Virus genome (UHGV): UHGV-0177318
DNA length: 47,797 bases
Strand: one strand, 5' to 3'
DNA from: a virus
The notes under the pieces are model-generated. The model saw only the letters and a list, made by a program, of their open reading frames with translations. It had not been told where the DNA came from and searched no databases. Below are positions 1-47,797 of this stretch, in pieces (within the stretch, counting starts at the first letter, position 1; the number at the start of each line of letters is the position of its first letter). Both the position numbers and the translations under genes were made by a program.

Positions 1-1182
1 TTCCTTAAATTCGGCGATAAAGAGACGCCATTCGGGTTCAAATGGACGCCGGGCGATCCTGCCAGCGTTATATATCTGTGTGAACACAATGCCTGCGTAA
101 TTAAACAGCAGGAGCTCGATTTTTCGCAGGCGCGGTACATCTGTGATGAAACCGGGATCTGGACGCGAGACGGACTTTGCTGGTTTTCATCATCGGGTGC
201 CGAAATTGATCCGCCTGACAGCGTAACCTTTCATATCTGGACGGCCTATAGCCCCTTCACAACCTGGGTGCAAATCGTCAAGGACTGGATCAAGACCAAA
301 GGGGACACGGGAAAGCGTAAGACGTTCGTCAACACAACGCTTGGTGAAACGTGGGAGCCTAAAATTGGTGAGCGTCCTGATGCTGAGGTGATGGCCGAAC
401 GTATTGAGCACTTCGGTGCCAGGGTGCCGGAGCGCGTGGCCTATCTTACTGCCGGTATTGACTCACAGCTTGACCGTTACGAAATGCGTGTCTGGGGCTG
501 GGGGCCTGGTGAGGAAAGCTGGCTTATCGACAAAATTATCATTATGGGGCGACATGATGATGAATCCACGCTTCTGAGGTTGGATGAGGCGATCAACAAA
601 ACCTATCCGAGGCCTAACGGTGTTGAGATGCTTATTTCCCGCATCTGCTGGGATATCGGTGGCATAGACCCAACGATTGTTTATAACCGCTCGAAAAAGC
701 ATGGTCTGTTTCGTGTCATCCCCGTTAAAGGCGCATCTGTCTACGGCAAGCCCGTGGCGAATATGCCTCGTAAGCGTAACAAGAACGGCGTTTATCTCAC
801 TGAGGTAGGAACAGACACCGCGAAAGAGCAAATTTATAACCGTTTCACGCTGGTGGCAGAAGGCGACGAACCGCTGGCGGGAGCGGTTCACTTCCCTAAT
901 AACCCTGAAATATATGATTTAGCTGAGGCTCAGCAGCTTACGGCTGAAGAGCAGGTTGAGAAGTGGGTAGACGGGAAGAAAAAAATCGTCTGGGACAGTA
1001 AAAAACGACGAAATGAGGCGCTTGACTGTTTTGTCTATGCACTTGCAGCTCTGCGGATAAGTATCTCCCGCTGGCAGCTGGATCTGGATTCTCTTCTGGC
1101 CAGCTTACGGGAAGAAGACACTGGCCGTAAAAATAATAAATCTCTGGCGGATTATGCCAGGGCATTAGCGGGAGATGAATAA
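1..1182 (+). CDS. A: Terminase large subunit (lambda gpA-like), C-terminal 393 aa; the 5' part is at the window end (47057..47797)
   Basis: Frame 1 is open from base 1 ([35 protein letters not shown]..) and runs into track ORF 268..1182. It is colinear with lambda gpA as I recall it ([64 protein letters not shown]). Both parts together give 640 aa, against 641 in lambda. Confidence 0.95.
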
Positions 1183-1388
1183 TGGCAACACAGGCTGAAC
1201 TGGATGCCGCGCGCGCAGCGTTACATGATCTGATGATGGGAAAACGGGTTGCGACGGTACAGAAAGACGGTCGAAGGGTGGAATTTACGGCGACGTCAGT
1301 CAGCGATCTGAAAAAGTACATCGCCGATCTAGAGTCACAGGTCGGTACCACTTCACGACGCCGCGGGCCGGCAAGGTTCTACGCATGA
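1182..1388 (+). CDS. W: Head-tail joining protein (lambda gpW-like)
   Basis: 68 aa. [43 protein letters not shown] is nearly identical to lambda gpW. The start overlaps the A stop (TAATG). Confidence 0.92.
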
Positions 1389-2974
1389 AAATTCCTTCTT
1401 TAGTTGGCCCCGACGGGAAAACCTCCCTGAGGGAATATGCAGGCTATCACGCCGGTGGCGGCGGATTCGGTGGGCAGCTAAATGCCTGGAATCCCCAGAG
1501 TGAAAGTGCCGACGCCGCACTTCTGCCGAACTTCGCCCGGGGGAATGCCCGTGCTGATGATCTGGTCCGTAACAATGGTTATGCGGCAAACGCCGTTCAG
1601 CTTCACCAGGATCACATCGTCGGGTCTTTTTTCAGACTGAGTTACTGCCCGAGCTGGCGTTATCTCGGCATTAAAGAAGAGGAAAGCCGAGCATTTGCCA
1701 GGGAGGTGGAGGCCGCCTGGTATGAATATGCGGAGGATGACTTTTGCGGGATTGATGCCGAGCGCAAGCGTACCTTTACGATGATGATCCGTGAAGGCGT
1801 TGCGACGCACGCATTTAACGGTGAACTGTGCGTCCAGCCCACCTGGGACAGTGATTCATCGCGACTTTTTCGCACGCAATTTAAAATGGTTAGTCCAAAA
1901 CGCGTGAGTAATCCCGGTAATACAGGTGACACGCGTAACTGTCGCGCGGGTGTCAAAATCAGTGATAGCGGCGCAGCGCTGGGGTACTACGTCAGTGAAG
2001 ACAGCTATCCTGGCTGGATGTCGCAAAAATGGACCTATATACCACGGGAACTGCCGGGCGGAAGGCCATCATTCATCCATATTTTTGAACCGCTTGAGGA
2101 TGGACAGACCCGCGGCGCAAACGTGTTTTACAGCGTGATGGAGCAGATGAAAATGCTCGACACCCTGCAAAATACTCAGCTCCAGAGCGCAATTGTAAAA
2201 GCTATGTATGCGGCGACAATCGAGAGCGAGCTTGATACCGATACGGCGATGGACTTTATCCTCGGCGCGGATAGTAAGCAGCAAAATAAGCTGACGGGCT
2301 GGCTTGGCGAAATGGCAGCATACTACGCTGCAGCGCCGGTTCGCCTCGGTGGCGCGAAAGTGCCTCATCTTATGCCGGGCGATTCCCTGAACCTTCAGTC
2401 AGCACAGGATACCGATAACGGTTATTCCACCTTTGAACAATCACTCCTGCGCTATATTTCGGCCGGTCTTGGTGTTTCGTATGAGCAGCTTTCCCGTAAC
2501 TACTCTCAGATGAGCTATTCGACGGCGCGCGCCAGCGCCAATGAATCCTGGGCGTTCTTTATGGGGCGTCGCAAGTTTGTCGCGGCCCGGCAAGCCTGCC
2601 AGATGTTCGTCTGCTGGCTCGAAGAGGCGATTGCGCGCCGGGTTGTCACGCTCCCGTCCAAAGCCAGGTTTAGCTTCCAGGAGGCGAGAACTGCCTGGGG
2701 TAACGCCAACTGGATTGGCTCGGGGCGCATGGCTATTGATGGGCTGAAGGAGGTGCAGGAGGCCGTGATGCTGATTGAGGCTGGTCTCAGCACATATGAG
2801 AAGGAGTGTGCCAAACGCGGAGATGACTATCAGGAGATATTTTCTCAGCAGGTACGTGAAACTATGGAGCGCCGGAGCGCGGGACTTAAACCTCCGGCAT
2901 GGGCGGCAGCTGCATTTGAATCTGGGCTGAAAAAATCAAATGAGGAGGTAAAAGATGACGCCAGAGCTGCGTAA
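1385..2974 (+). CDS. B: Portal protein (lambda gpB-like)
   Basis: 529 aa (lambda gpB 533 aa). Position after W, 4-nt overlap with W, and portal-family length. Confidence 0.9.
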
Positions 2975-13301: not shown

Positions 13302-14021
13302 ATGCGTGAAAAATTGCTGGATGCTATCCGTCAGCACGTCGCTGCTGAATACCCCAAAGAAGCCTGCGGCCTGATTGTTCAGTCAGGCCAGCAGCAAATC
13401 TATATTCCCTGCCGCAACATTGCCGATAAACCCGAGGAGACATTCACGCTCTCCCCGGAAGACCAGCTCGCTGCCCGCGCGCGCGGTGAGATCATCATGC
13501 TCATTCATTCACATCCGGATGTGGTTCGGCTGGTGCCCTCAGAGCTGGACCGGATCCAGTGCGACTGGTCGGGTATTGAGTGGGGGATCATGTCCTGGCC
13601 GGACGGGGACTTTTGTACGATCTCCCCGCGTGAAGACCGGGATTATGCCGGGCGGCAGTGGGTGCTGGGTTACGCGGACTGCTGGTCGTTAATCCGTGAA
13701 TATTATCTGCGCGAATACGGCATTGTTCTCGGGGACTATTCGGTACCTTACGAATGGTGGGAGAGCGGCAAGGAGCGGCTCTACGACGACAACTGGGAGC
13801 GCGAGGGATTCGTTGAGATTGCCGCCGGTGCAATGCAGCCCGGTGACATCATCATGATGAGTGTGCAGGCATCGGTGACTAATCACGCCGCGGTATATGT
13901 GGGTGACAACATCATTCTCCATCATCTGTTCGGGCATCTTTCTTCGCGAACGCCTTATGGAAAATATTATCGCGACAGAACGGTCCGGGTGGTCAGGCAT
14001 AAGGACCGAATGCATGGTTAA
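13302..14021 (+). CDS. K: Tail tip assembly protein (lambda gpK-like; JAB/MPN + NlpC/P60 domains)
   Basis: An internal start at MREKLLDAIRQHVAAEYPKEACG right after the L stop gives 239 aa. Motifs HSHP and DCWSL...NHAAVYVG match gpK. The track start at 13203 would overlap L by about 100 nt. Confidence 0.88.
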   Translation: MREKLLDAIRQHVAAEYPKEACGLIVQSGQQQIYIPCRNIADKPEETFTLSPEDQLAARARGEIIMLIHSHPDVVRLVPSELDRIQCDWSGIEWGIMSWPDGDFCTISPREDRDYAGRQWVLGYADCWSLIREYYLREYGIVLGDYSVPYEWWESGKERLYDDNWEREGFVEIAAGAMQPGDIIMMSVQASVTNHAAVYVGDNIILHHLFGHLSSRTPYGKYYRDRTVRVVRHKDRMHG

Positions 14022-14631
14022 GACGCTTATTCTCGAAGGGAAAATGGCTAAAAAATTCGGTAAACGCGTTCAGTTTGATGTTGCCGATCTGCGCGAAATG
14101 CTCAGGGCCATGTGTTCACAGGTTCCCGGATTCAAAAAATATATGTCGGAAGCTCATATGAAGGGGATCCGTTTCGCCTTTTTTAACGGTGACAACAATA
14201 TCGGGCTGGAAGAGTTTGATATGACCCGCGGTGGAAGCGTGTACCGGATCGTGCCCGTTTATGAGGGGGCCAAAAATTCAGGCGTCCTGCAGATAGTTGT
14301 CGGTGCCGTTGCGCTGGTCGCTGCATTCTTTACCGCCGGTGCGAGTATGGCAGCCTGGGGGGCTGCGATGAGTGCAACAGCCATCAGCGCCACGTCAATT
14401 TTGACCGGGGTCGGGGTGTCAATGATGCTGGGTGGCGTTGTCCAGATGCTTACGCCCCAGCCATCCTTCGGCGCGGGTAAATCCTCCAGCACGGACAACA
14501 CGCCTAACTACGCCTTCGGGGCGCCGGTTAATACCGTCGCTATGGGGCATCCAGTCCCCCTGGCCTATGGTCTGATCGAGGCAGGGGGAGCGATAGTCAG
14601 CGCCGGTATGTACTCGAGCGATCAGCAATAG
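14014..14631 (+). CDS. I: Tail tip assembly protein (lambda gpI-like)
   Basis: Start MVKTLILEGKMAKKFG overlaps the K stop (ATGGTTAA). GAKNSGVLQIVVGAVALVAAFFTAGASMAAWGAA...LGGVVQMLTP matches gpI (GAKSGGVFQIVLGAAAIAGSFFTAGATLAAWGAA). Confidence 0.88.
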   Translation: MVKTLILEGKMAKKFGKRVQFDVADLREMLRAMCSQVPGFKKYMSEAHMKGIRFAFFNGDNNIGLEEFDMTRGGSVYRIVPVYEGAKNSGVLQIVVGAVALVAAFFTAGASMAAWGAAMSATAISATSILTGVGVSMMLGGVVQMLTPQPSFGAGKSSSTDNTPNYAFGAPVNTVAMGHPVPLAYGLIEAGGAIVSAGMYSSDQQ

Positions 14632-14716
14632 TGAAATGCAACCTAATAAGATGAACGTTACATTGCGATCACCCTTGGTTATCATGTCCAAAAAGATGCC
14701 AATCAAGGAGATGAAA

Positions 14717-15193
14717 GTGAAAAAATACGGTTTGGTCTTATTAGGTGTGCTGTTTATTTCAGGTTGTGCCCCCCAAAATCAGAACAACAATTTACAAAAA
14801 CAATACGCTGACTTAGCAAAGTGTGAAGATAACATCACGATGCCAAAACAAATGCCGCAAAGTAAAAAGGAGTTTGCGGAGTTTTTATCCAAGGCTGCGC
14901 TTAGTGCCTCGGCAGATCAGTTTGTTACCCAGAAGCGTATAGAAATTCTGCAATTAGTTGGGTGGGATAATTCAGTAGCTGATGCAATAACGACATGTGG
15001 AGCTACCAGAAAGAGCAAGCTAAAAGATATTGGGTCGAATGTGTTTGAAACGATGAAAGCAAACACTAAAGATACAGAAGAGCGTCGCGCTCTTGTTGAG
15101 GCTTATAGTTCGTGGGAGGCTTATGTAACCAGCCAAACTCCGCTCGCAAAACAGGACTTTGACTCTAAAGTTAGCTATTACAAAAACATGTAA
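14717..15193 (+). CDS. Lipoprotein of unknown function (moron inserted between I and J)
   Basis: Signal peptide plus lipobox: (M)KKYGLVLLGVLFISG|C. SD AAGGAG (14705..14710) lies 6 nt before GTG 14717, whereas ATG 14711 abuts the SD. AT-richer than the flanks and has its own terminator. No lambda counterpart at this position. Confidence 0.75.
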   Translation: MKKYGLVLLGVLFISGCAPQNQNNNLQKQYADLAKCEDNITMPKQMPQSKKEFAEFLSKAALSASADQFVTQKRIEILQLVGWDNSVADAITTCGATRKSKLKDIGSNVFETMKANTKDTEERRALVEAYSSWEAYVTSQTPLAKQDFDSKVSYYKNM

Positions 15194-35255: not shown

Positions 35256-36108
35256 ATTAACGGGTTACGTTTGGGACGCTTGTGCCGCTTCTGGCATGAA
35301 GCTGTCCAGCGTTGCCATCATGGCGCGTCTGGCAGACTTCAGCAGTGATGAAGGGGTTAGCTGGCCTTCCATCGCTACCATCGCGCGCCAGATTGGTGCC
35401 GGTGAGAGCACGGTTCGAACAGCCATATCTCAACTGGAAAAAGACGGGTGGTTAACCCGCCAGCAGCGCCGTAAAGGCAACCGCAATGCATCGAACGTTT
35501 ACCAGCTCAATGTTGCGAAATTACAGGCTGCTGCCTTTTCTCACCTGTCAGATTCTGACGCATCAAAATCTGATGCCTCAAAAACCGACGCGTCAAAATC
35601 TGAGGCATCAAAAAACGATGAAAAAGACGGTTTTCACCCGTCAGAATCTGGGGGGGATCCGTCAGTAAATACAACTACTGATCCATCAGATAAAAAACAT
35701 TCTTGTCCGGTTGCTGCGCAACCCGACCCTGTGGTGGTTATCACCGATCAGGCGAAGCAGGTTTTATCACATCTGAACAAGACCACCGGATCACGGTATC
35801 AGGTCTGCAAATCGTCCTTGGAAAACATCCGGGCTCGCCTGGCTGACGGGTTTACGCCCGATGAGCTGCTGTTGGTGGTGGATTACAGCGTCGAGAAGTG
35901 GGGCGAAGATCTGAAAATGGCCGAATATCTGCGCCCAACAACGTTGTTTTTGCCATCTAAATTCCCAGGTTACCTGCAATCCGCAAATAAGTGGAACGCA
36001 GCAGGACGCCCAGAACGACAGTACTGGGGCTCAATTCGTAAGCATGATCCGATGAAATTTGGTGGGCCAGATAAAGCCATCCCAGCTGGCTTCAGGGGAG
36101 CGAAATGA
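35245..36108 (+). CDS. Replication initiator-like protein (N-terminal wHTH + phage conserved C-terminal domain), O-analogue
   Basis: 287 aa. N-terminal HTH (WPSIATIARQIGAGESTVRTAISQLEKDGWL), a central acidic/Ser repeat encoded by iterons, and a C-terminal DQAKQVLSHLNKTTGSRY...FTPDELLLVVDY domain seen in phage replication proteins. It occupies the lambda O position. Confidence 0.7.
   Translation: MSTKLTGYVWDACAASGMKLSSVAIMARLADFSSDEGVSWPSIATIARQIGAGESTVRTAISQLEKDGWLTRQQRRKGNRNASNVYQLNVAKLQAAAFSHLSDSDASKSDASKTDASKSEASKNDEKDGFHPSESGGDPSVNTTTDPSDKKHSCPVAAQPDPVVVITDQAKQVLSHLNKTTGSRYQVCKSSLENIRARLADGFTPDELLLVVDYSVEKWGEDLKMAEYLRPTTLFLPSKFPGYLQSANKWNAAGRPERQYWGSIRKHDPMKFGGPDKAIPAGFRGAK
35557..35616 (+). 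repeat. Four tandem 15-bp iterons inside the replication gene (candidate ori)
   Basis: GACGCATCAAAATCT / GATGCCTCAAAAACC / GACGCGTCAAAATCT / GAGGCATCAAAAAAC, translated as (S)DASK x4. This is analogous to the ori-lambda iterons inside O. Confidence 0.65.
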
Positions 36109-37004
36109 TGAGCATGAATGCTGATAACAAATATTGCCGCGCGCTGGCTGAACTGCGCTCAAAGCCAGCGCATGAATTGAAAGAAGTTGGCGATCAGTGG
36201 CGCACTCCGGATTTGTTGTTTTGGGGCATCAATTCGATATTTGGGCCGATGGTTCTGGATCTGTTTGCAGACGATAGCAATACTAAATGCCCTGCATGGT
36301 ACACCGCCGAAGATAACGCGCTGACGCAGGACTGGTCAGAGCGTCTGGCAGAACTCGGTGGCGCCGCGTTTGCAAATCCGCCATATAGCCGTTCTCAGTA
36401 CCATGAAAAGCAGGCCATCACTGGCATGACCCACATCATGAATCACACAATGGCGATGCGTGATAAAGGTGGTCGTTACATATACCTCGTGAAGTCAGCC
36501 ACAAGTGAAACATGGTGGCCGGAAGATGCCGATCACATCATGTTTATTCGTGGTCGTATTGGGTTCGATCTTCCTATTTGGTTTGTTCCCGCTGACGAGA
36601 AGCAGCAACCCACCAGCGCATTTTTTGCCGGGGCAATCGCTGTCTTCGACAAAACCTGGCGTGGTGAAAGCTTCAGCTATATCAATCGCACCGAACTGGA
36701 AGAAAAAGGGCGTGCAGCATTGTCATTGGCTCAATTCGCCGCGGCAAAAATGGCCCTTTCGTCGGTGCCGGAAAAAGCAATGCCTACTCCCATTGCAACG
36801 GCTGATGCAGAGTCGCGCATCTGGCCGCTGGAGGTTGGTCTGGTATTCAATCAGGTCAAGGGGGCGGATTCTCTGGGCGTGAACCAACAGAACAAGTTGA
36901 AGGCCAACATCAACCAACTCTGGCTGGAGCGTGTGCCTACCAGCGAAATAATTAGCGTGGCCGGTGGTCTGGTTAGCAGCATGCAGGGGGCCGTCAATGC
37001 GTGA
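36105..37004 (+). CDS. Phage Dam-family N6-adenine DNA methyltransferase
   Basis: 299 aa. WRTPDLLF near the N-terminus and catalytic FANPPYS. Confidence 0.8.
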   Translation: MMSMNADNKYCRALAELRSKPAHELKEVGDQWRTPDLLFWGINSIFGPMVLDLFADDSNTKCPAWYTAEDNALTQDWSERLAELGGAAFANPPYSRSQYHEKQAITGMTHIMNHTMAMRDKGGRYIYLVKSATSETWWPEDADHIMFIRGRIGFDLPIWFVPADEKQQPTSAFFAGAIAVFDKTWRGESFSYINRTELEEKGRAALSLAQFAAAKMALSSVPEKAMPTPIATADAESRIWPLEVGLVFNQVKGADSLGVNQQNKLKANINQLWLERVPTSEIISVAGGLVSSMQGAVNA

Positions 37005-38934
37005 AATCATCGTTGATAACTTTGCCGGTGGTGGCGGCGCGAGTACCGGCATTGAACTGGCCATCGGGCGTAGCGTGGATATCGCTATCAACCACGACGA
37101 AAACGCTATTGCGATGCATAAGACGAATCACCCGGACACGCTGCATTATTGCGAGTCGGTGTTTGACGTTGACCCAAGCGCAGCCACCAGCGGTAAACCT
37201 GTCGGTCTGGCCTGGTTTAGCCCTGACTGTCGCCACTTTTCCAAAGCGAAGGGCGCTAAGCCGGTTAAGAAAGAGATTCGCGGGCTGGCGTGGATTGTCC
37301 TGCGCTGGGCGCTGGCAGTACGTCCCCGCGTCATGATGCTGGAGAACGTCGAAGAATTTAAGACATGGGGACCGCTGCTGGATGAAGAATTACGCCCGGA
37401 TCCTGAGCGTGCAGGTGAAACATTCGAGGCATTTGTCGGCATGTTGTCGACTGGTATCGCGGCGAATCACCCAGCACTGGCTGAGGTTTGTGAATTTCTT
37501 GCCATTGAGCCGCACGGCCAGCAGGCGCAACAGCTGATCGCCGGGCTTGGCTATGAGGTCGATTATCGTGAGCTGCGCGCTTGTGACTACGGCGCGCCGA
37601 CGATCAGAAAGCGTTTCTTCATGGTCATGCGCTGTGACGGCCGCAAGATTCATTGGCCTGAAGCGACTCATGGGGATCCAAAATCACTGGAAGTACAAAG
37701 CGGCAAGCTGGCGCCATGGCGTACCGCGGCGGAGTGCATTGACTGGAATATCCCGGCCCGGTCCATCTTCGACCGCAAAAAGCCGCTGGCGGAAAATACG
37801 CTCAAACGTATCGCACGCGGCATCCAGCGCTTTGTTATCGAAAGCGCATCACCTTTCATCGTGAAGTGTAACCACACCACGACGAAAGGAGGTTATGACT
37901 GTTTCCGCGGGCAATCGTTGTTAGAGCCATTGCAGACCATCACTAAAAAGCATGGCTACGCGCTGGCCGTACCGCATCTTACTAAATTCCGCACCGGGGC
38001 CACCGGGCAGCCAGTGACCGAGCCAGTTCCAACTGTCACCGCTGGTACGTCGGCGCGCCCGGGCGGGAATGGGCATGCGCTTGGCGTAGTTGAGGCCGCC
38101 CTGACACCGTTCCTGGCTGGCAATGGCGGCAGTGAGTACCAGGCAAAGCCGCGCCCACTGGATAAACCCGCTCATACAATCCTCAAGCAGTCCCGCGCGT
38201 GCGTGGTTGCGCCGGTCATCGCCCGCCAGTTTGGCGCCAGTGTTGGGCATAGGGCTGACGAACCTAGCGCAACGATTACTGCAGGTGGTGGCGGTAAGTC
38301 GCAGCTGGTAACTCCAACACTGATCCAGATGGGGTACGGCGAACGCCCAGGGCAAGAACCGCGTGTTCTTCAACTGAATAACCCGCTCGGCACGGTCACT
38401 GCTGGTGGTAATAAGTTTGCAACGGTGAGCGCGTTCCTGGCGAAGCACTATGGTGGGAATTACACGGGGCCGGGTGTTGGTATGGATGAGCCTGCCCACT
38501 CAGTCACTACTGTTGATCATCACGCGGTAGTTGCGTCGCACCTGGTGAAGCTGCGCGGAACCTGCCGCGACGGTCAGACCATGGATACACCTATGCCGAC
38601 GATTACCGCTGGTGGCCAGCATGTTGGTGAGGTCCGGACATTCCTCGAAACCTACTGCGGTGATAGCGAGGATGAATGGCTGGTGACGATCGAGGGGGTT
38701 AAGTACCAGATCGTCGATATCGGAATGCGCATGCTGCAACCGCATGAGCTTTATAAGGCACAGGGCTTCCCTGACGGCTACGTTATCGATCAGGACTATC
38801 GCGGCAATCGTTACGCCAAAGACAAGCAGGTAGCGCGCTGCGGTAACGCAGTACCGCCGCCGTTCGCTCGTGCGCTGGTAGAAGCAAATCTTCCTGAATT
38901 ATGTGCAAATCAAAAGGCGGGTGCAGCCGCCTGA
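36997..38934 (+). CDS. DNA cytosine-5 methyltransferase with a very long repeat-containing target-recognition region
   Basis: The internal start MREIIVDNFAGGGGAS (motif I) overlaps the upstream stop (ATGCGTGA). Motifs: SPDCRHFSKAKG (IV), ENVEEF (VI), APTIRKRFF (VIII), QGFPDGY...GNAVPPP (IX/X). 645 aa. Confidence 0.88.
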   Translation: MREIIVDNFAGGGGASTGIELAIGRSVDIAINHDENAIAMHKTNHPDTLHYCESVFDVDPSAATSGKPVGLAWFSPDCRHFSKAKGAKPVKKEIRGLAWIVLRWALAVRPRVMMLENVEEFKTWGPLLDEELRPDPERAGETFEAFVGMLSTGIAANHPALAEVCEFLAIEPHGQQAQQLIAGLGYEVDYRELRACDYGAPTIRKRFFMVMRCDGRKIHWPEATHGDPKSLEVQSGKLAPWRTAAECIDWNIPARSIFDRKKPLAENTLKRIARGIQRFVIESASPFIVKCNHTTTKGGYDCFRGQSLLEPLQTITKKHGYALAVPHLTKFRTGATGQPVTEPVPTVTAGTSARPGGNGHALGVVEAALTPFLAGNGGSEYQAKPRPLDKPAHTILKQSRACVVAPVIARQFGASVGHRADEPSATITAGGGGKSQLVTPTLIQMGYGERPGQEPRVLQLNNPLGTVTAGGNKFATVSAFLAKHYGGNYTGPGVGMDEPAHSVTTVDHHAVVASHLVKLRGTCRDGQTMDTPMPTITAGGQHVGEVRTFLETYCGDSEDEWLVTIEGVKYQIVDIGMRMLQPHELYKAQGFPDGYVIDQDYRGNRYAKDKQVARCGNAVPPPFARALVEANLPELCANQKAGAAA

Positions 38935-41953: not shown

Positions 41954-43006
41954 ATGAAAAATACTGTAAATATAAACAGTGTTGAGCTTGTCAACGCTGA
42001 CTGCCTGCAATACCTCGCAACCCTCCCAGATAACACCATCGACCTTATTGTTACGGATCCGCCTTATTTTAAGGTGAAGCCGAACGGCTGGGATAATCAG
42101 TGGAATGGTGACGCCGACTATCTTCGCTGGCTTGATATGTGTCTTGCCCAGTTCTGGCGAGTGCTTAAGCCTGCCGGCAGCCTGTATTTGTTTTCAGGTC
42201 ACCGACTTGCATCCCATATTGAGATCATGATGCGTGAACGCTTCAACGTCATGAACCACATTATCTGGGCGAAGCCATCAGGGCGCTGGAACGGGTGTAA
42301 TAAAGAAAGCCTGCGCTCTTACTTTCCCGCGACGGAACGCATCCTTTTCGCTGAGCATTATCAGGGGCCATATAAGCCGAAAAGCGACGGATTTGCTGAG
42401 AAAAGCAACGAGGTCAAACAGCACGTCATGGCTCCGTTAATCACCTACTTTCGGGAAGCACGAGCCGAACTGGGGGTCACGTCCAGGCAAATAGCTGACG
42501 CCACCGGAAAGAAAAATATGGCGTCTCACTGGTTCGGTGCCAGTCAGTGGCAACTACCGAACGAGCAGGATTACGAAAAGCTGCAGGAATTGTTCACTCA
42601 GATCGCCATTGAGAAGCACCGCGCCTCTGAACTCAAAGCACCGCATCACCAGCTGGTGGCCACATGGCATTCGTTGAACCGGAAATACCTTGATCTGCTG
42701 GAAGAGTACAAATCTCTTCGGCGGCATTTCTCTGTGACAGTAGCCGTGCCCTATACAGACGTCTGGACACATAAACCCGTCCAGTTCTATCCAGGCAAAC
42801 ACCCGTGCGAAAAGCCCGCTGATATGTTGCGGCAAATCATCAACGCCAGCAGCAGGCCCGGCGATGTGGTAGCTGATTTCTTTATGGGCTCGGGATCAAC
42901 TGTTAAAGCAGCCATTGAACTGGGCCGCCAGGCTATCGGCGTAGAACTGGAAGAGGAACGTTTCAACCAGACGGTAAGTGAGGTAAGGCAGCTGGCAGGG
43001 GAATAA
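41954..43006 (+). CDS. Beta-class N6-adenine/N4-cytosine DNA methyltransferase (DPPY, N6_N4_Mtase family)
   Basis: 350 aa. NADCLQYLATLPDNTIDLIVTDPPYF (motif IV first), then the C-terminal HPCEKP and FFMGSGST (motif I). Confidence 0.88.
   Translation: MKNTVNINSVELVNADCLQYLATLPDNTIDLIVTDPPYFKVKPNGWDNQWNGDADYLRWLDMCLAQFWRVLKPAGSLYLFSGHRLASHIEIMMRERFNVMNHIIWAKPSGRWNGCNKESLRSYFPATERILFAEHYQGPYKPKSDGFAEKSNEVKQHVMAPLITYFREARAELGVTSRQIADATGKKNMASHWFGASQWQLPNEQDYEKLQELFTQIAIEKHRASELKAPHHQLVATWHSLNRKYLDLLEEYKSLRRHFSVTVAVPYTDVWTHKPVQFYPGKHPCEKPADMLRQIINASSRPGDVVADFFMGSGSTVKAAIELGRQAIGVELEEERFNQTVSEVRQLAGE
41962..41981 (+). promoter_or_regulatory. LexA (SOS) box overlapping codons 3-10 of the DPPY methyltransferase
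   Basis: TACTGTAAATATAAACAGTG, one base different from the dinI box at 25858. Confidence 0.75.
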
Positions 43007-43012
43007 AAGCTT

Positions 43013-43035
43013 GGGTCGCTATCGCGGCCCTTTTT
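43013..43035 (+). terminator. Intrinsic terminator after the DPPY methyltransferase
   Basis: GGGTCGC-tatc-GCGGCCC (one G.U pair) followed by T5. Confidence 0.7.
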
Positions 43036-43292: not shown

Positions 43293-43828
43293 TGTCGAAC
43301 AAAGCAAAGCTCAGCGCAGCAGTGCTGGCGCTAATCGCGTCAGGGGCATCTGCGCCACTCATTTTCGACCAGTTCATCAGCGAGAAAGAAGGAAACGCGC
43401 TGGTGGCCGTTGTTGATCCTGGCGGGGTCTGGTCTCTATGTCACGGCGTGACCGTTATCGATGGCAGGCGTGTTGTTAAAGGCATGACGGCCACTGAGGA
43501 ACAATGCCGGAAGGTTAACGCTATTGAACGCGATAAGGCATTAGCCTGGGTTGATCGCAATATCAAAGTGCCTCTGACAGAGCCACAGAAGGTGGGTATC
43601 GCATCCTTCTGCCCGTATAACATCGGCCCCGGTAAATGCTTCCCATCGACCTTCTATAAGCGTATCAACGCAGGTGACCGCATCGGTGCATGCGAGGCAA
43701 TCCGCTGGTGGATTAAAGATGGTGGCCGTGATTGTCGTCTAACCAAAGGCCAGAAGAATGGCTGCTATGGTCAGGTTGAGCGACGGGACCAGGAAAGCGC
43801 GCTGGCGTGCTGGGGGTTAGACCAATGA
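43289..43828 (+). CDS. R: SAR endolysin (GH24 lysozyme, phage 21 R-type)
   Basis: 179 aa. N-terminal weakly hydrophobic SAR segment ([19 protein letters not shown]), then the catalytic E-x8-D-x5-(T/S)-like region [18 protein letters not shown]. Confidence 0.88.
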
Positions 43829-44340
43829 AAATTAATCCGGGTCTTTTAGGCGTTGTTGTTATTGCCGTCCTTTCGGTCGCTCTCGTTAAGAGTTGCTCCA
43901 ACGCCAGTAGTCTTCAGAGCGATATCGACGTTCTGCGAAGTGACAACTCTATGCAGGGGCAGGTGATCGCCACCCAGGCATTCAACTTCAATCGATTCAA
44001 TCAGGTTGCAGAACATGCCAACAGGCTTAACTCCCTGATCGACACTAGCACCGAAGAAACCGTAATCGAATACCGGGAGATACTCCGCCGTGAAAAAACC
44101 TGTGATCTGCCTGTTCCTGCTGACATTGCTGGTGGGCTGCTCGAATACGCGTACCGTTTACGTTCCAGCGCAATGCACGCCGATACCGACGGAACTGACG
44201 CAGCCGATGATAGTACCGCTGCCGCCCGTTCAATAACGTACTGCCAGGCTGTGCTCTGGATTAAGCCGTTGCTGGCCGTAATAGAGAAGGGCAACAATAA
44301 CTTCGCTGGCATTCGTCAAGTAGAACAGGAGCGACAATAG
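43825..44340 (+). CDS. Rz: i-spanin Rz
   Basis: Start [20 protein letters not shown] (N-terminal TM) overlaps the R stop (ATGA). 171 aa and coiled-coil rich. Confidence 0.85.
   Translation: MKINPGLLGVVVIAVLSVALVKSCSNASSLQSDIDVLRSDNSMQGQVIATQAFNFNRFNQVAEHANRLNSLIDTSTEETVIEYREILRREKTCDLPVPADIAGGLLEYAYRLRSSAMHADTDGTDAADDSTAAARSITYCQAVLWIKPLLAVIEKGNNNFAGIRQVEQERQ
44090..44236 (+). CDS. Rz1: o-spanin Rz1, embedded in the +1 frame of Rz (absent from track)
   Basis: GTG start. (M)KKPVICLFLLTLLVG|CSNTRTVYVPAQCTPIPTELTQPMIVPLPPVQ has a lipobox and a Pro-rich mature part. 48 aa, entirely inside Rz. Confidence 0.85.
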   Translation: MKKPVICLFLLTLLVGCSNTRTVYVPAQCTPIPTELTQPMIVPLPPVQ

Positions 44341-44496
44341 GTATGGGCAAATCCTAACGTGAAAATCTGCAGCAGCATTTCCATTATGTTTGGCTGTAAA
44401 TTATCTATCACCATAGGTTTCTTGCGTCATCAGGTAATAGACCGACCTCATAAAAAGAGGTAAATTATTACTTTACGTTGCGCTCAGGTAGACGAG

Positions 44497-45285
44497 ATGG
44501 AAGAACGTCATCACAGCTATATCCTTAAAACTATTGAAGAAATAGGAAGGGGTGGGTTCGGTTACGTTGAAAAAATTGAACTTTTCAATGTTAACGGTCA
44601 CAAATGCGGTGACTACGCCAAAAAGATTTTGGCGCAGGATCATGGGCTTAGCAAAGAGGACTTCAAAAGAAGATTCAAACGGGAAGTGGATTATCAGGCT
44701 AGGTGTACGCACTCGAATATAGCGCCTATATATCTACACAATCTTCAGGTTGATAGTCCTTGGTTTGTTATGGATCTCGCTGAAAGTGATTTAAGTACAG
44801 ATTTAGCCTCAGGCACGCTCGATAATGCAAGCAAAATGCATATTGCAGAAATGATCCTTTCAGGGGTACGTTTCATGCATACAGAGAAAACTAATGATCC
44901 AGGACGTAAGCCAGTATATTTACACCGTGATTTAAAGCCATCTAATATTCTTCGTTTTAAAGATGGAGTTTACAAAATTTCCGATTTTGGTTTAGTAAAA
45001 AATGCAGGAAAAGAAAGACCAGAATCTGAGCTTTTAACAAGAGTCGCTACAGCCATGGGAACGCTCAAATACATGGCTCCTGAGATAACAACAGCTGGGC
45101 ATTACTCAGAGCAAACTGACATTTTTGCTCTCGGAGTAGTTATTGATGATATGGGGTTTGATAACGTTAATGGTATTAGACAGTTAATCGATAAATGCAC
45201 CGCCTGGAGAGCTGCAAGCCGATACAAATCGGTTGATGATATGATGCAGGAACTGGCTGATATAAAAATAAGGAATGGGCTATGA
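44497..45285 (+). CDS. Hanks-type (eukaryotic-like) Ser/Thr protein kinase, bare catalytic domain
   Basis: 262 aa. IGRGGFGYV (G-loop), DYAKKIL (VAIK Lys), YLHRDLKPSNIL (catalytic loop), ISDFGLVK (DFG), GTLKYMAPE (APE). Confidence 0.9.
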   Translation: MEERHHSYILKTIEEIGRGGFGYVEKIELFNVNGHKCGDYAKKILAQDHGLSKEDFKRRFKREVDYQARCTHSNIAPIYLHNLQVDSPWFVMDLAESDLSTDLASGTLDNASKMHIAEMILSGVRFMHTEKTNDPGRKPVYLHRDLKPSNILRFKDGVYKISDFGLVKNAGKERPESELLTRVATAMGTLKYMAPEITTAGHYSEQTDIFALGVVIDDMGFDNVNGIRQLIDKCTAWRAASRYKSVDDMMQELADIKIRNGL

Positions 45286-46031
45286 TTACCCTACTTTCAA
45301 GTGGTCTTTTCTCTTACGCTAAAAGTTCTTCGCGTACTAATCAGGATTCTATTCTTGCTCCACAGTGCATCGATAATGGCTATTTGATTGCTGTCGCTGA
45401 TGGCGTTGGCTCGTACTTGGGCGCAGAACACGCTTCACAAACAGCAATTAAATATTTAGCGAACCTAATCAATGCTTCTTCTATCCAAGATCTTGATAGC
45501 CTCTTCGCCACAATAAAAGAAAAGATTTCTGCGTTATCTGACGCTGATGAATCCTATTTAGAAGCTGCAACGACGTTGACGTTTGCATATGTAAACAATC
45601 AAGGTTTGTACATTGGTCATGTTGGTGATTGTCGTTTGTATATTAAAAAAGATAATAAACTCAAACAACTAACGAAAGATCATACCCAACATCAAAAACT
45701 GTTGGATCAGAAGATTTTCAATAAAAAAGAACTTAAGGATATGGGGGGGAAAAACACCCTAACAACTGCGATTTCTAAAGTTATCCCATTGGAATTTCAA
45801 CAAACGTTTATTCCTGCGTCTGAAGTTTTCGAAGACAACGAAGAGGCCACTCTCTACATTCTTTCAGATGGAGCACACCACTTCTGGGATAAGAGACCAA
45901 GATTCTCAATCACTACTTTGAGCAATCCAAACTGTTTTGCAGCTAGCTTGCATAAACGAATTATTCGTAATGGGCCTATAGATGATTTTTCTTTGGTTGT
46001 AGCCAAGTTCAAGCGCAGCAGTGTTAACTAA
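45282..46031 (+). CDS. PP2C/PPM-family Ser/Thr phosphatase
   Basis: 249 aa. IAVADGVGSYLGAEHASQ, GHVGDCRLY, YILSDGAHHF. ATGA overlap with the kinase stop. Confidence 0.85.
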   Translation: MITLLSSGLFSYAKSSSRTNQDSILAPQCIDNGYLIAVADGVGSYLGAEHASQTAIKYLANLINASSIQDLDSLFATIKEKISALSDADESYLEAATTLTFAYVNNQGLYIGHVGDCRLYIKKDNKLKQLTKDHTQHQKLLDQKIFNKKELKDMGGKNTLTTAISKVIPLEFQQTFIPASEVFEDNEEATLYILSDGAHHFWDKRPRFSITTLSNPNCFAASLHKRIIRNGPIDDFSLVVAKFKRSSVN

Positions 46032-46146
46032 TGGTGTGGTTGAACTTGTAAGACTTACGGCTCAATAAAGGTTCGGGCATACGTAGTTCGTGTTGAACAT
46101 AAGGGCTGAAATTCTGATTACATAGTTGAACAAACTCCATACCAGG

Positions 46147-46175
46147 GCCACCAGCAATCACTGGTGGTTTTTTTT
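46147..46175 (+). terminator. Strong intrinsic terminator after the kinase/phosphatase cassette
   Basis: CCACCAG-caatca-CTGGTGG followed by T8. Confidence 0.85.
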
Positions 46176-46348
46176 GCGTATCGCACGCGCACATCAAGGA
46201 AAGTCTTTCAGTTGTGAGCCCGGGCAAACCGTTAACTTTCGGCGGTTTCGCCTTGCGATAGGCGCAATATGGGTTCAACAAAGAGCGCGTTGATGCTGTC
46301 CCGCAGAGCAGGGGCCGCGGGTCCTTTCCGGCTATCTGACATGTTACG

Positions 46349-46360
46349 GGGCGGCGACCT
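46349..46360 (+). other. cos: cosN cohesive-end sequence (within a lambda-like cosQ-cosN-cosB region, about 46320..46536)
   Basis: GGGCGGCGACCT is identical to the lambda 12-nt cohesive end. The flanks (gggtcctttccgg..gttacg | ..cgctatttatgaaaattttc) match the lambda right and left termini. Confidence 0.9.
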
Positions 46361-46536
46361 CGCAGGTTCTCGCTATTTATGAAAATTTTCAGGATTTTGC
46401 CTTTTCCGTTCTTCTTCTTGCTAAGTATCTGTCTTTACTGGGTATAACCCACCACAAGAAAGGAAGTGTTAAAGCCTGGTAGTAGTCATTTTACCCGGCA
46501 TGGTTTCCTTACCCTGTGTTTCGCCTGGAGTTCGTC

Positions 46537-47082
46537 ATGGAGGTCAATAAAAAACGCCTTTCAGAGATTTTTGGTGTCAGCATCCGCACGATCCAGAACT
46601 GGCAGGATCAGGGAATGCCAGTTGCGCGCGGTGGTGGAAAAGGGAATGAAGTGCTTTATGACTCTGCCGCCGTAATCGAATGGTATTCCGCCCGTGACGC
46701 AGCGATAGAAAACGAAAAGCTGCGCAAAGAGGTTGAACAGCTGAGAGTTGATTCAGAATCAGACCTTGTGCCTGGCACGATTGATTATGAGCGCCATAGG
46801 CTTACCCGAGCCCAGGCTGATGCTCAGGAACTAAAAAATGCAAAAGAGTCCGCTGAGGTGGTGGAGACCGCATTCTGCACGTTCGTGCTGTCGCGGATAG
46901 CCGGAGAAATTGCCAGTATCCTTGATGGAATACCTCTGTCGGTTCAGCGGCGCTTTCCGGAACTGGAAAATCGACATATTGATTTCCTCAAGAAGGACAT
47001 CATAAAAGCCATGAACAAAGCAGCTGCGCTGGATGAAATGATACCGGGGTTGCTGAGTGAATATATCGAACAGTCAGGTTAA
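46537..47082 (+). CDS. Nu1: Terminase small subunit (lambda Nu1-like)
   Basis: 181 aa from MEVNKKRLSEIFGVSIRTIQNWQDQGMPVARGGGKGNEVLYDSAAVIEWY, the same length as lambda Nu1 and near-identical to it. The track start at 46516 adds 7 non-homologous residues. Confidence 0.95.
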   Translation: MEVNKKRLSEIFGVSIRTIQNWQDQGMPVARGGGKGNEVLYDSAAVIEWYSARDAAIENEKLRKEVEQLRVDSESDLVPGTIDYERHRLTRAQADAQELKNAKESAEVVETAFCTFVLSRIAGEIASILDGIPLSVQRRFPELENRHIDFLKKDIIKAMNKAAALDEMIPGLLSEYIEQSG

Positions 47083-47797
47083 GGGGCTACAGCACTCCGC
47101 GCGCTCGGGGCTCCGTTCGTTGTACCGGCCAGAACCGCAAACGGCGGTTGAGTGGGCAGACGAAAATTATTACCTTCCAAAAGAGTCTGCTTATCAGGAA
47201 GGGCGCTGGGAAACGCTGCCGTTTCAGCGTGCGATAATGAATGCGATGGGTAATGACTATATCCGCGAGGTCAATGTCGTTAAGTCTGCCCGAGTAGGCT
47301 ATTCAAAAATGCTGCTCGGCGTGTATGCGTATTTCATCCAGCATAAACAACGTAACTCGCTTATCTGGTTACCTACCGACGGTGATGCAGAAAACTTCAT
47401 GAAATCCCATGTCGAACCGACAATCCGGGACATCCCCTCACTGCTGGCGCTGGCGCCCTGGTACGGTAAAAAGCACCGGGACAACACGTTGAGTATGAAA
47501 CGTTTCTCGAATGGGCGAGGTTTCTGGTGCCTCGGTGGTAAAGCTGCAAAAAACTACCGTGAAAAATCTGTTGATGTGGCGGGTTATGACGAGCTGGCGG
47601 CATTTGACGATGATATCGAGAAAGAGGGCTCTCCAACGTTCCTGGGGGATAAACGTATTGAAGGGTCGGTCTGGCCTAAATCGATACGAGGATCCACACC
47701 CAAAATTAAAGGGACATGCCAGATTGAACGTGCCGCCAAGGAGTCAGAGCATTTCTTGCGCTTCTATGTTCCCTGCCCACATTGTGGGGAGGAGCAG
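47057..47797 (+). CDS. A: Terminase large subunit (lambda gpA-like), N-terminal 247 codons; open at the window end and continues at base 1
   Basis: GTG start inside the Nu1 3' end, as in lambda: (M)NISNSQVKGLQHSARSGLRSLYRPEPQTAVEWADENYYLPKESAYQEGRWETLPFQRAIMNAMG...KSARVGYSKMLLG (Walker A region)...PCPHCGEEQ. It has no stop before the window end, so it is absent from the track. Confidence 0.95.
   Translation, partial: MNISNSQVKGLQHSARSGLRSLYRPEPQTAVEWADENYYLPKESAYQEGRWETLPFQRAIMNAMGNDYIREVNVVKSARVGYSKMLLGVYAYFIQHKQRNSLIWLPTDGDAENFMKSHVEPTIRDIPSLLALAPWYGKKHRDNTLSMKRFSNGRGFWCLGGKAAKNYREKSVDVAGYDELAAFDDDIEKEGSPTFLGDKRIEGSVWPKSIRGSTPKIKGTCQIERAAKESEHFLRFYVPCPHCGEEQ

Follow-up and report, generated by a model that had tools for sequence, protein, structure and literature searches.

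As judged from sequence comparisons, a Hanks-type Ser/Thr protein kinase gene and a PPM/PP2C Ser/Thr phosphatase gene of the viral genome UHGV-0177318 (47,797 nt, analysed over its full length and called here the window) form a conserved, horizontally mobile cargo module and not a core phage function; the module occupies at least four phage slots as well as islands, and this is the main new result of the analysis. Our favoured reading, to which we give a probability of about 0.5, is that the cassette would act as a minimal toxin/antidote module, based on phosphorylation, for defence or exclusion. For its toxicity, trigger, defence output and expression in the lysogen we lean on the precedent of KKP, a kinase-kinase-phosphatase module, from which these properties may be extrapolated. 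A preliminary description of the region, made from the sequence alone, had drawn attention to both genes. The open reading frames (ORFs), their coordinates and their kinase and PP2C motifs were recovered as it gave them, and Pfam profile searches scored above the cutoffs for both proteins.

Pairing of the two genes was examined at 79 family loci, scored with family-specific hidden Markov models (HMMs) and drawn from IMG/VR viral contigs, nine exact-sequence chromosomal look-ups and two annotated phages; dereplication at 90% kinase identity reduced them to 38 lineages. A same-strand PP2C ORF lay downstream of the kinase gene in 78 of the 79 loci, the 79th ending at the contig end, and it directly abutted the kinase gene in 76 of these 78, the remaining two being one frameshifted PP2C gene and one locus with internal duplications. 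The two genes overlapped by 4 nt in 57 of the 79 loci, and all nine chromosomal look-ups carried the same pair. These sequence data support the view that kinase and PP2C function as an obligate pair, which temperate elements carry as cargo. A Rosetta-stone search for fused kinase-PP2C proteins returned none among the top 120 and top 150 phosphatase homologs, and one 366-aa protein of Yersinia enterocolitica (P0126) corresponds to a locus with internal duplications. Internally repeated segments of both genes were seen at locus L147 (positions 1..2540), which looks like a misassembly, an assembly artefact, or may be a real tandem duplication.

The hosts of this family of roughly 250-aa kinases included Enterobacter, Dickeya, Yersinia, Serratia, Pectobacterium, Photorhabdus, Xenorhabdus, E. 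coli, Citrobacter, Pseudomonas, Xanthomonas, Vibrio and Haemophilus, among others. The phosphatase clade was tight, with 21 clusters (50% identity) at E <= 1e-30 among 1.84 billion representatives; generic PP2C matches numbered about 16,000. Megablast of the cassette found no near-identical DNA in 50,697 phage records or 5,426 complete E. coli genomes and, by this sequence search, the cassette DNA is rare in both collections. Family-level homologs among the same phage records were found only in Cronobacter phage phiES15 and in the lambdoid-type Escherichia phage Flotzy, and no known virulent phage carried a family member; phiES15 can be considered temperate because it was UV-induced from its host. 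In phiES15 the two genes are annotated as 'putative protein kinase' and 'putative serine/threonine phosphatase'; for Flotzy the annotation reads 'serine-threonine kinase' and 'hypothetical protein'. The earlier suggestion of an arrangement peculiar to this locus does not hold, since the pair is present in these two phages and widespread in Gammaproteobacteria. A scan of reference genomes with the kinase alignment yielded one family member among 80 loci, the others being generic Hanks kinases by which the scan was swamped because its search patterns derived from the HRD and DFG motifs. Two distant variants (L156, 1554..3565; L157, 921..2956) encode a kinase of about 440 aa with a C-terminal extension, followed by PP2C in the same kinase-then-phosphatase order; judging from their sequences, these variants may be a bridge between the bare pair and larger kinase systems.

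The genomic contexts were diverse. The slot following the spanin genes and preceding the terminase genes, in which the pair lies in the window, harboured an identical cassette in other Enterobacter-type phages and was also occupied by the pair in phage Flotzy and in a Serratia prophage, the packaging modules being different (Nu1/gpA; Terminase_4 with HK97-type TerL; Terminase_2 with Terminase_6). Other phage locations were between a Q-type antiterminator and a holin (phiES15 and a Yersinia pseudotuberculosis prophage), next to cI/Cro/YdaS/YdaT-type immunity genes (several IMG/VR contigs), between ssb/recT and bro/int in the int-proximal early-left arm of a Haemophilus prophage, and at the edge of a PM2-like prophage of Vibrio vulnificus. 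Outside phages, the pair was found directly downstream of hsdRMS (type I restriction-modification, R-M) with flanking integrases in Pseudomonas viridiflava (L011, 1153..7401), convergent with a NACHT/nSTAND3 (STAND) NTPase gene and with a SymE toxin nearby in Xanthomonas arboricola (L179, 11682..13646), in an integrase/resolvase island of E. coli, and in a small islet amid housekeeping genes of Vibrio parahaemolyticus. From their gene content, the P. viridiflava and X. arboricola loci look like small defence islets. A survey of whether the pair co-occurs next to cos had been proposed beforehand: co-occurrence was almost complete, but many insertion sites other than the Rz-to-cos slot were used.

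Pfam families were also counted for four genes on each side of the pair in the 38 lineages (278 neighbours). Upstream neighbours comprised lysozyme (7), Rz (5), holins (7), Q (3) and several HTH/cI/Cro-type families, and downstream neighbours small terminases (8), integrases (4), lysis genes and resolvases. In V. vulnificus, the coat protein of the neighbouring prophage matched PM2-type P2_N/P2_C domains (L013, 8001..9493 and 13968..14801) and, on these domain matches, the carriers of the pair include a corticovirus-like element besides tailed phages. The Y. pseudotuberculosis prophage with the pair also has a HicA/HicB toxin-antitoxin system amid its packaging genes (L180, 14968..15602).

In the window, the cassette (44341 to about 46316) lies between Rz/Rz1 and cos, as had been described, with spanin phrogs on its left and, on its right, an alignment to the phi80 cos region and Nu1 (Table 1). 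Its GC content was 39.3%, against 52.5% for the remaining genome, so that the AT-richness estimated by eye was borne out, and the module was AT-richer than its own flanks in 36 of 37 contexts, with a mean difference of 10 points. Homology of the lysis region to phages Phi06_2987 (97%) and LLS (94.6%) ended exactly at the Rz stop codon (44340), and homology to the cos/Nu1 DNA of phi80 and Stx1 phages restarted at about 46316-46349. The length given beforehand for the gap ahead of the kinase gene was exact, and the strong terminator announced behind the pair was recognised. Of 35 dereplicated loci, 17 had a terminator-like hairpin in the 300 nt behind the PP2C gene (1.7 expected), in many cases no more than 20 nt from the stop codon. 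The proximal 90 nt or so of the leader were partly conserved with the leaders of two relatives of 70% identity (L128 and L096), whose flanks differ. The predicted ATGA overlap was present as well and, from the sequence, is a translational coupling of kinase and PP2C. No Rfam family or tRNA was found in the cassette or in the whole window.

Phages LLS and Phi06_2987, which are close relatives, do not carry the kinase/PP2C cassette; the absence from these near-identical phages indicates that it is dispensable. In LLS (L177, 5755..6387; PQ299149), the same post-spanin slot is filled by an unrelated 210-aa gene (phrog_1349, 4e-105; function not known) and in phage 933W bor comes after Rz1, i.e. 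in the same slot, which suggests that the Rz-to-cos site is a cargo hotspot and agrees with the earlier comparison with the bor slot. With a deviant composition, an insertion into a slot filled differently elsewhere, homology breaks at both ends and a terminator of its own, the cassette has the characters of a moron, and its description as self-contained, foreign and moron-like could be maintained.

Table 1. Positions of the two genes, of the cassette signals and of the adjacent genes in the window
Feature	Position	Strand	Evidence or remark
Rz-like i-spanin gene, left flank	43807..44340	+	phrog_214, 4.2e-57
Rz1 o-spanin lipoprotein gene, embedded in the Rz-like gene	44090..44236	+	phrog_456, 1.6e-6
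AT-rich 156-nt leader, left boundary of the cassette	44341..44496	+	Homology break at 44340
Domain-only Hanks-type Ser/Thr protein kinase gene, 262 aa	44497..45285	+	Pfam Pkinase (PF00069)
ATGA overlap, kinase stop / PP2C start	45282..45285	+	Seen in sequence
PPM/PP2C Ser/Thr phosphatase gene, 249 aa	45282..46031	+	Pfam PP2C_2 (PF13672), PP2C (PF00481)
3' non-coding tail to the right boundary	46032..46316	+	phi80/Stx1-phage homology resumes beyond
Intrinsic terminator closing the cassette	46144..46179	+	11-pair stem, 6-nt loop (46144-46171), then T8 run
cos cohesive end GGGCGGCGACCT, right flank	46349-46360	.	Alignment with position 1 in the phi80 genome record, where the 12-base 5' extension is annotated
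Nu1 gene, beyond cos	46516..47082		Pfam, 1.6e-93

Sequence and structure models were used to assign functions to residues of both proteins, and on these grounds kinase and phosphatase both look catalytically active. The kinase matched Pfam Pkinase (E 2.7e-34, 119.2 bits, cutoff 31.7) and phrog_2361 (1e-67), and contains the motifs GRGGFG (residues 17-22), YAKK (40-43), HRDLKPSN (143-150), DFG (163-165) and YMAPE (192-196). Alignments with 19-31 relatives, 37-71% identical, showed G19, G22, K43, E63, H143-R144-D145, K147, N150, D163-F164-G165, D208 and R242 to be invariant in both alignments, and E196 to be invariant in alignment A1 and nearly so in A5. The full set of Hanks catalytic elements is thereby present (G-loop, VAIK Lys, alpha-C Glu, HRDLKxxN, DFG, APE, alpha-F Asp and subdomain XI Arg), HRDLKxxN being the catalytic loop of Ser/Thr-type kinases. 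The AlphaFold model (pLDDT 87.6, pTM 0.86) displays a complete bilobal fold with disorder only in the activation loop (174-184). Since the kinase fold takes up all 262 aa of this model, no space is left for a further domain, and the kinase is bare, as the preliminary description had it; besides Pkinase and PK_Tyr_Ser-Thr, no other Pfam domain was found, neither CSD nor FHA. Foldseek gave a probability of 1.0 to many kinase structures, the nearest being generic TKL-type kinases (TM about 0.7, about 21% identity). An insert ahead of the HRD motif, TEKTNDPGRKPV (window 44887..44922, kinase residues about 131-142), was confined to the subclade of the window, including its Dickeya and Yersinia relatives; this low-confidence part of the model may be a surface loop specific to a partner or substrate.

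The phosphatase matched Pfam PP2C_2 (E 7.6e-16, 58.7 bits, cutoff 24) and PP2C (E 2.5e-9, 37.6 bits, cutoff 20.3), with the motifs AVADGVGS, GHVGDCRLY and LSDGAHH all present. Residues D22, D40-G41-x-G43, G115-D116-x-R118, D196-G197 and D234-D235 were invariant among 23-30 relatives, and alignment to the metal-site motifs of PstP indicated that the metal-coordinating aspartates of PPM motifs 1, 2, 5, 8 and 11 are kept. Its AlphaFold model (pLDDT 92) is a PPM beta-sandwich whose best fold match was PstP of M. tuberculosis (TM 0.78-0.86, E 2e-16). The invariance of the Hanks and PPM metal-site residues across relatives 35-70% identical indicates catalytic integrity of the two enzymes and purifying selection on both. 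Among solved structures and in sequence and fold searches, only generic relatives were found for the two proteins. The phosphatase matches just positions 273-520 of the 565-position phrog_5650 profile, and this partial coverage is a hint that some phage members are possibly much longer or fused.

The mechanism that we favour would be as follows. The kinase would be a potentially growth-arresting effector that phosphorylates itself and subsequently host, and possibly phage, proteins, and the co-translated phosphatase would constantly undo this phosphorylation and keep the pair silent, according to a type VII toxin/antidote logic. Once the balance is tipped, the kinase would run free; the trigger could be a protein from an incoming phage that binds to the phosphatase or inhibits it, or else loss of the element. 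The unchecked kinase would then block the superinfecting phage or the cell, resulting in exclusion or abortive infection. Owing to its location at the end of the late operon, the cassette would also be transcribed from pR' during lytic growth of the phage itself. For KKP, it has been reported that this type VII toxin-antitoxin (TA) system defends against T4 and T-odd phages once a phage protein inhibits its phosphatase, that gp59 of T4 is such an inhibitor and triggers the defence, and that the kinases phosphorylate many essential host proteins (PMC11341870). The toxin-antitoxin-like logic proposed from the sequence has, then, an experimental precedent, but one whose kinases carry CSD and FHA domains, both of which are missing from the window kinase.

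Several observations weigh against a defence role. KKP toxicity requires both kinases with their C-terminal CSD (PfkA) and FHA (PfkB) domains, one kinase alone being inert (PMC11341870), whereas the window kinase has neither domain and is accompanied by no second kinase. The matches of this kinase to PADLOC defence models appear to be generic, and the link with defence genes is drawn from a small number of loci and not from a statistical enrichment. Gene decay was not clearly asymmetric and is uninformative on kinase toxicity: a broken kinase gene accompanied an intact PP2C gene at two loci, and an intact kinase gene a frameshifted PP2C gene at one (L146). With regard to transcription, most phage loci had their upstream neighbour on the same strand and the pair co-oriented with its lytic operon, so that lysogenic expression, which a defence role requires, is an assumption. 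No terminator was found between Rz and the kinase gene. A promoter had been suspected in the gap 44341..44496, where no + strand sigma-70-like site passed a consensus scan, and the leaders of the family showed no excess of promoter-like sites (13 of 35, 11.8 expected), in a scan that was also blank at island loci where a promoter must exist. As the gap has no detectable promoter, expression of the cassette solely by read-through from pR' is possible. The sole promoter-like site in the gap faces left (window 44411..44383, minus strand), antisense to Rz/Rz1, and is quite possibly a chance match in AT-rich DNA.

This transcriptional setting can also be interpreted in terms of a host-takeover or timing module of the lytic cycle, which we consider rather unlikely. 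The pair would be transcribed only from pR' (or, in other phages, from early operons) to the benefit of the phage's own replication; the kinase would rewire host proteins at a late stage of infection and the phosphatase would limit or time this effect or remove host phosphorylation, with a purpose like that of T7 gp0.7. Besides the orientation of the pair and the missing promoter and terminator upstream, this interpretation is in agreement with the fact that the late-operon and Cro/YdaS-adjacent slots are lytic transcription units. However, a lytic role makes no sense in the R-M-adjacent and NACHT-adjacent islets or in the integrase/resolvase island, and pure takeover is difficult to square with an antagonist to which the kinase is permanently coupled. 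The lack of family members in virulent phages among the 50,697 records and the dispensability deduced from LLS and Phi06_2987 also argue against it.

Another explanation can be based on lysogeny or host physiology. The balanced activities of the two enzymes would tune the phosphorylation of host nucleoid or regulatory proteins for prophage induction or lysogen fitness. Precisely such a second function has been described for KKP, which phosphorylates MvaU and takes part in prophage/host regulation (PMC11341870). The carriers of the pair are almost exclusively temperate elements, some of its members lie beside immunity regions, and the constant AT-richness would make the cassette an H-NS-type target. 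We nevertheless hold such a regulator to be unlikely, for the pair was also found in small chromosomal islets with no prophage nearby, neither protein has a sensor domain and no target is known; moreover, it is compatible with the defence reading, since KKP does both. Finally, a pure addiction module that would stabilise its mobile element by post-segregational killing, with a long-lived kinase, a short-lived phosphatase and no part in phage-phage conflict, appears highly improbable in spite of the opposing enzymes, their tight coupling and the many kinds of integrative carriers, as plasmid-style addiction is of little benefit to prophages and islands that are integrated, L146 keeps an intact kinase beside its frameshifted phosphatase and the differential stability of the two proteins is an assumption.

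Returning to the toxin/antidote module that we favour, the pair could, tentatively and with somewhat less confidence, be regarded as the founding example of an unnamed family of two-gene phospho-switches. Members would combine a domain-only kinase and a PP2C phosphatase, in this order, into a type VII immune or exclusion module without CSD, FHA, vWA or sensor repeats, spreading through Gammaproteobacteria as an AT-rich cassette with a terminator of its own, on lambdoid phages, on corticovirus-like prophages and in defence islets. Few systems of phosphorylation-based immunity are known in bacteria (Stk2, KKP, PD-T4-6, TerY-P and the BREX and MADS kinases) and, to our knowledge, every characterised kinase-based defence depends on accessory domains or partner proteins. 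If a kinase domain and a phosphatase alone suffice, they would represent the simplest switch of phosphorylation-based immunity, and the check on an unregulated Hanks kinase, its trigger and its host or phage targets would become addressable in E. coli-type hosts. A defence role would also bear on host range in phage therapy, because the family is widespread in prophages of clinically relevant Enterobacterales, Vibrio, Pseudomonas, Xanthomonas and Haemophilus. Under current annotation pipelines the genes are labelled just 'serine/threonine kinase' and 'PP2C phosphatase', and a defence finder would either overlook the pair or wrongly call it PD-T4-6. After KKP such a pair is not very surprising, but it is compact, widespread and unnamed.

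As for the genome itself, joining the ends of the window (47079..47797 + 1..1182) yielded an uninterrupted gpA-type large terminase of 640 aa and, because gpA reads through the joined ends without a stop, the stretch can be taken as a complete, circularly permuted lambdoid genome of 47.8 kb. The host is probably Enterobacter, since proteins 99-100% identical were named from E. hormaechei and E. asburiae. The phage also encodes three DNA methyltransferases, namely a Dam-like, a 656-aa C5-cytosine and an N6/N4 enzyme (window 36105..37004, 36964..38934 and 41954..43006), which amount to a heavy anti-restriction load. The N6/N4 gene is placed between Q and holin with a terminator of its own (43013-43030), as a second cargo insertion in the late operon.

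The comparison with known systems was in agreement with the earlier statement that this is not a named system: the pair lacks defining features of KKP, TerY-P and 933W Stk, its matches to Stk2 and PD-T4-6 are confined to the kinase domain, and full-text searches turned up no paper describing the two-gene module. Among the analogues put forward at that stage, 933W Stk, Stk2 and T7 gp0.7 proved to be relatives at the domain level but with no closer kinship, and the pair is no relative of TerY-P. In housekeeping Stk/Stp pairs (PknB/PstP, PrkC/PrpC, Stk1/Stp1), genes of these two enzyme families are likewise neighbours, and PstP and Stp1 come nearest to the PP2C in fold. The housekeeping pairs differ by their order, phosphatase then kinase, by kinases with a transmembrane segment and PASTA sensor domains, and by being chromosomal core genes. 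NCBIfam scores were far under equivalog level (97.7 versus a cutoff of 450, and 101 versus 230).

The kinase Stk of prophage 933W, as Friedman et al. reportedly found in 2011, excludes HK97. Like the window kinase it is a eukaryotic-like kinase of a lambdoid prophage, and both fall in the remote-homology cluster phrog_2361. Stk is however 347 aa long and encoded downstream of cI in the pM operon with no phosphatase partner, whereas the window kinase gene follows Rz in the late region. Close kinship was discarded: identity was 22% over 230 columns (C-lobe) with a pairwise E of 7e-8, and tblastn at E <= 1e-5 missed the relationship. TerY-P, a triad of the TerY vWA protein, a PP2C phosphatase and a Ser/Thr kinase, is said to be one of the defence systems of Gao et al. 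in 2020. It shares with the pair the joint encoding of kinase and PP2C in a conflict or defence context. TerY-P was rejected as no TerY/vWA gene was present in the window flanks, which consist of spanin and cos/Nu1 as the preliminary description implied, or in any surveyed locus, and none figured among the top Pfam families of the 278 neighbours; TerY-P profile models were absent from the best 25 of 34 PADLOC kinase matches.

The PADLOC check that had been recommended did return matches, to Stk2, PD-T4-6 and PDC-M21C, but those of the kinase were generic and limited to its domain. The Stk2 model (3.6e-24) was covered at positions 129-354 of 500 and the PD-T4-6 model (3.3e-34) at positions 13-205 of 327, in both cases over the kinase domain only. 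Models of PD-T4-6 also call housekeeping PASTA kinases (PMC11514479), and a match to them is for this reason not diagnostic. Stk2 of Staphylococcus and PD-T4-6 of E. coli have a Hanks kinase domain in common with the window kinase, yet both are single-gene systems without a phosphatase. For 23 family phosphatases, PDC-M21C was the only match, and none of the full-text papers searched named 'PDC-M21'.

KKP, the PfpC-PfkB-PfkA module of Pf6, P2, P4 and Mu-type prophages (Guo et al. 2024, PMC11341870), differs from the pair in several respects. It has three genes in the order phosphatase-kinase-kinase, against two genes, kinase then phosphatase with the ATGA overlap, in the window, an order that was the same in the 38 lineages. 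The carriers are also distinct: those of the window pair are lambdoid phages, and tblastn with the window PP2C over the phage records retrieved no P2, P4, Mu or Pf record. Membership in KKP was rejected by comparison with the published architecture, as the pair has neither the three-gene order nor a CSD kinase nor an FHA kinase. Both nevertheless associate a Hanks kinase and a PP2C phosphatase (PF13672) in one operon, on prophages or mobile elements of Gram-negatives, and both are sometimes accompanied by R-M, TA or integrase genes. Of the characterised systems, KKP is the closest and the nearest in kind to the kinase/PP2C pair.

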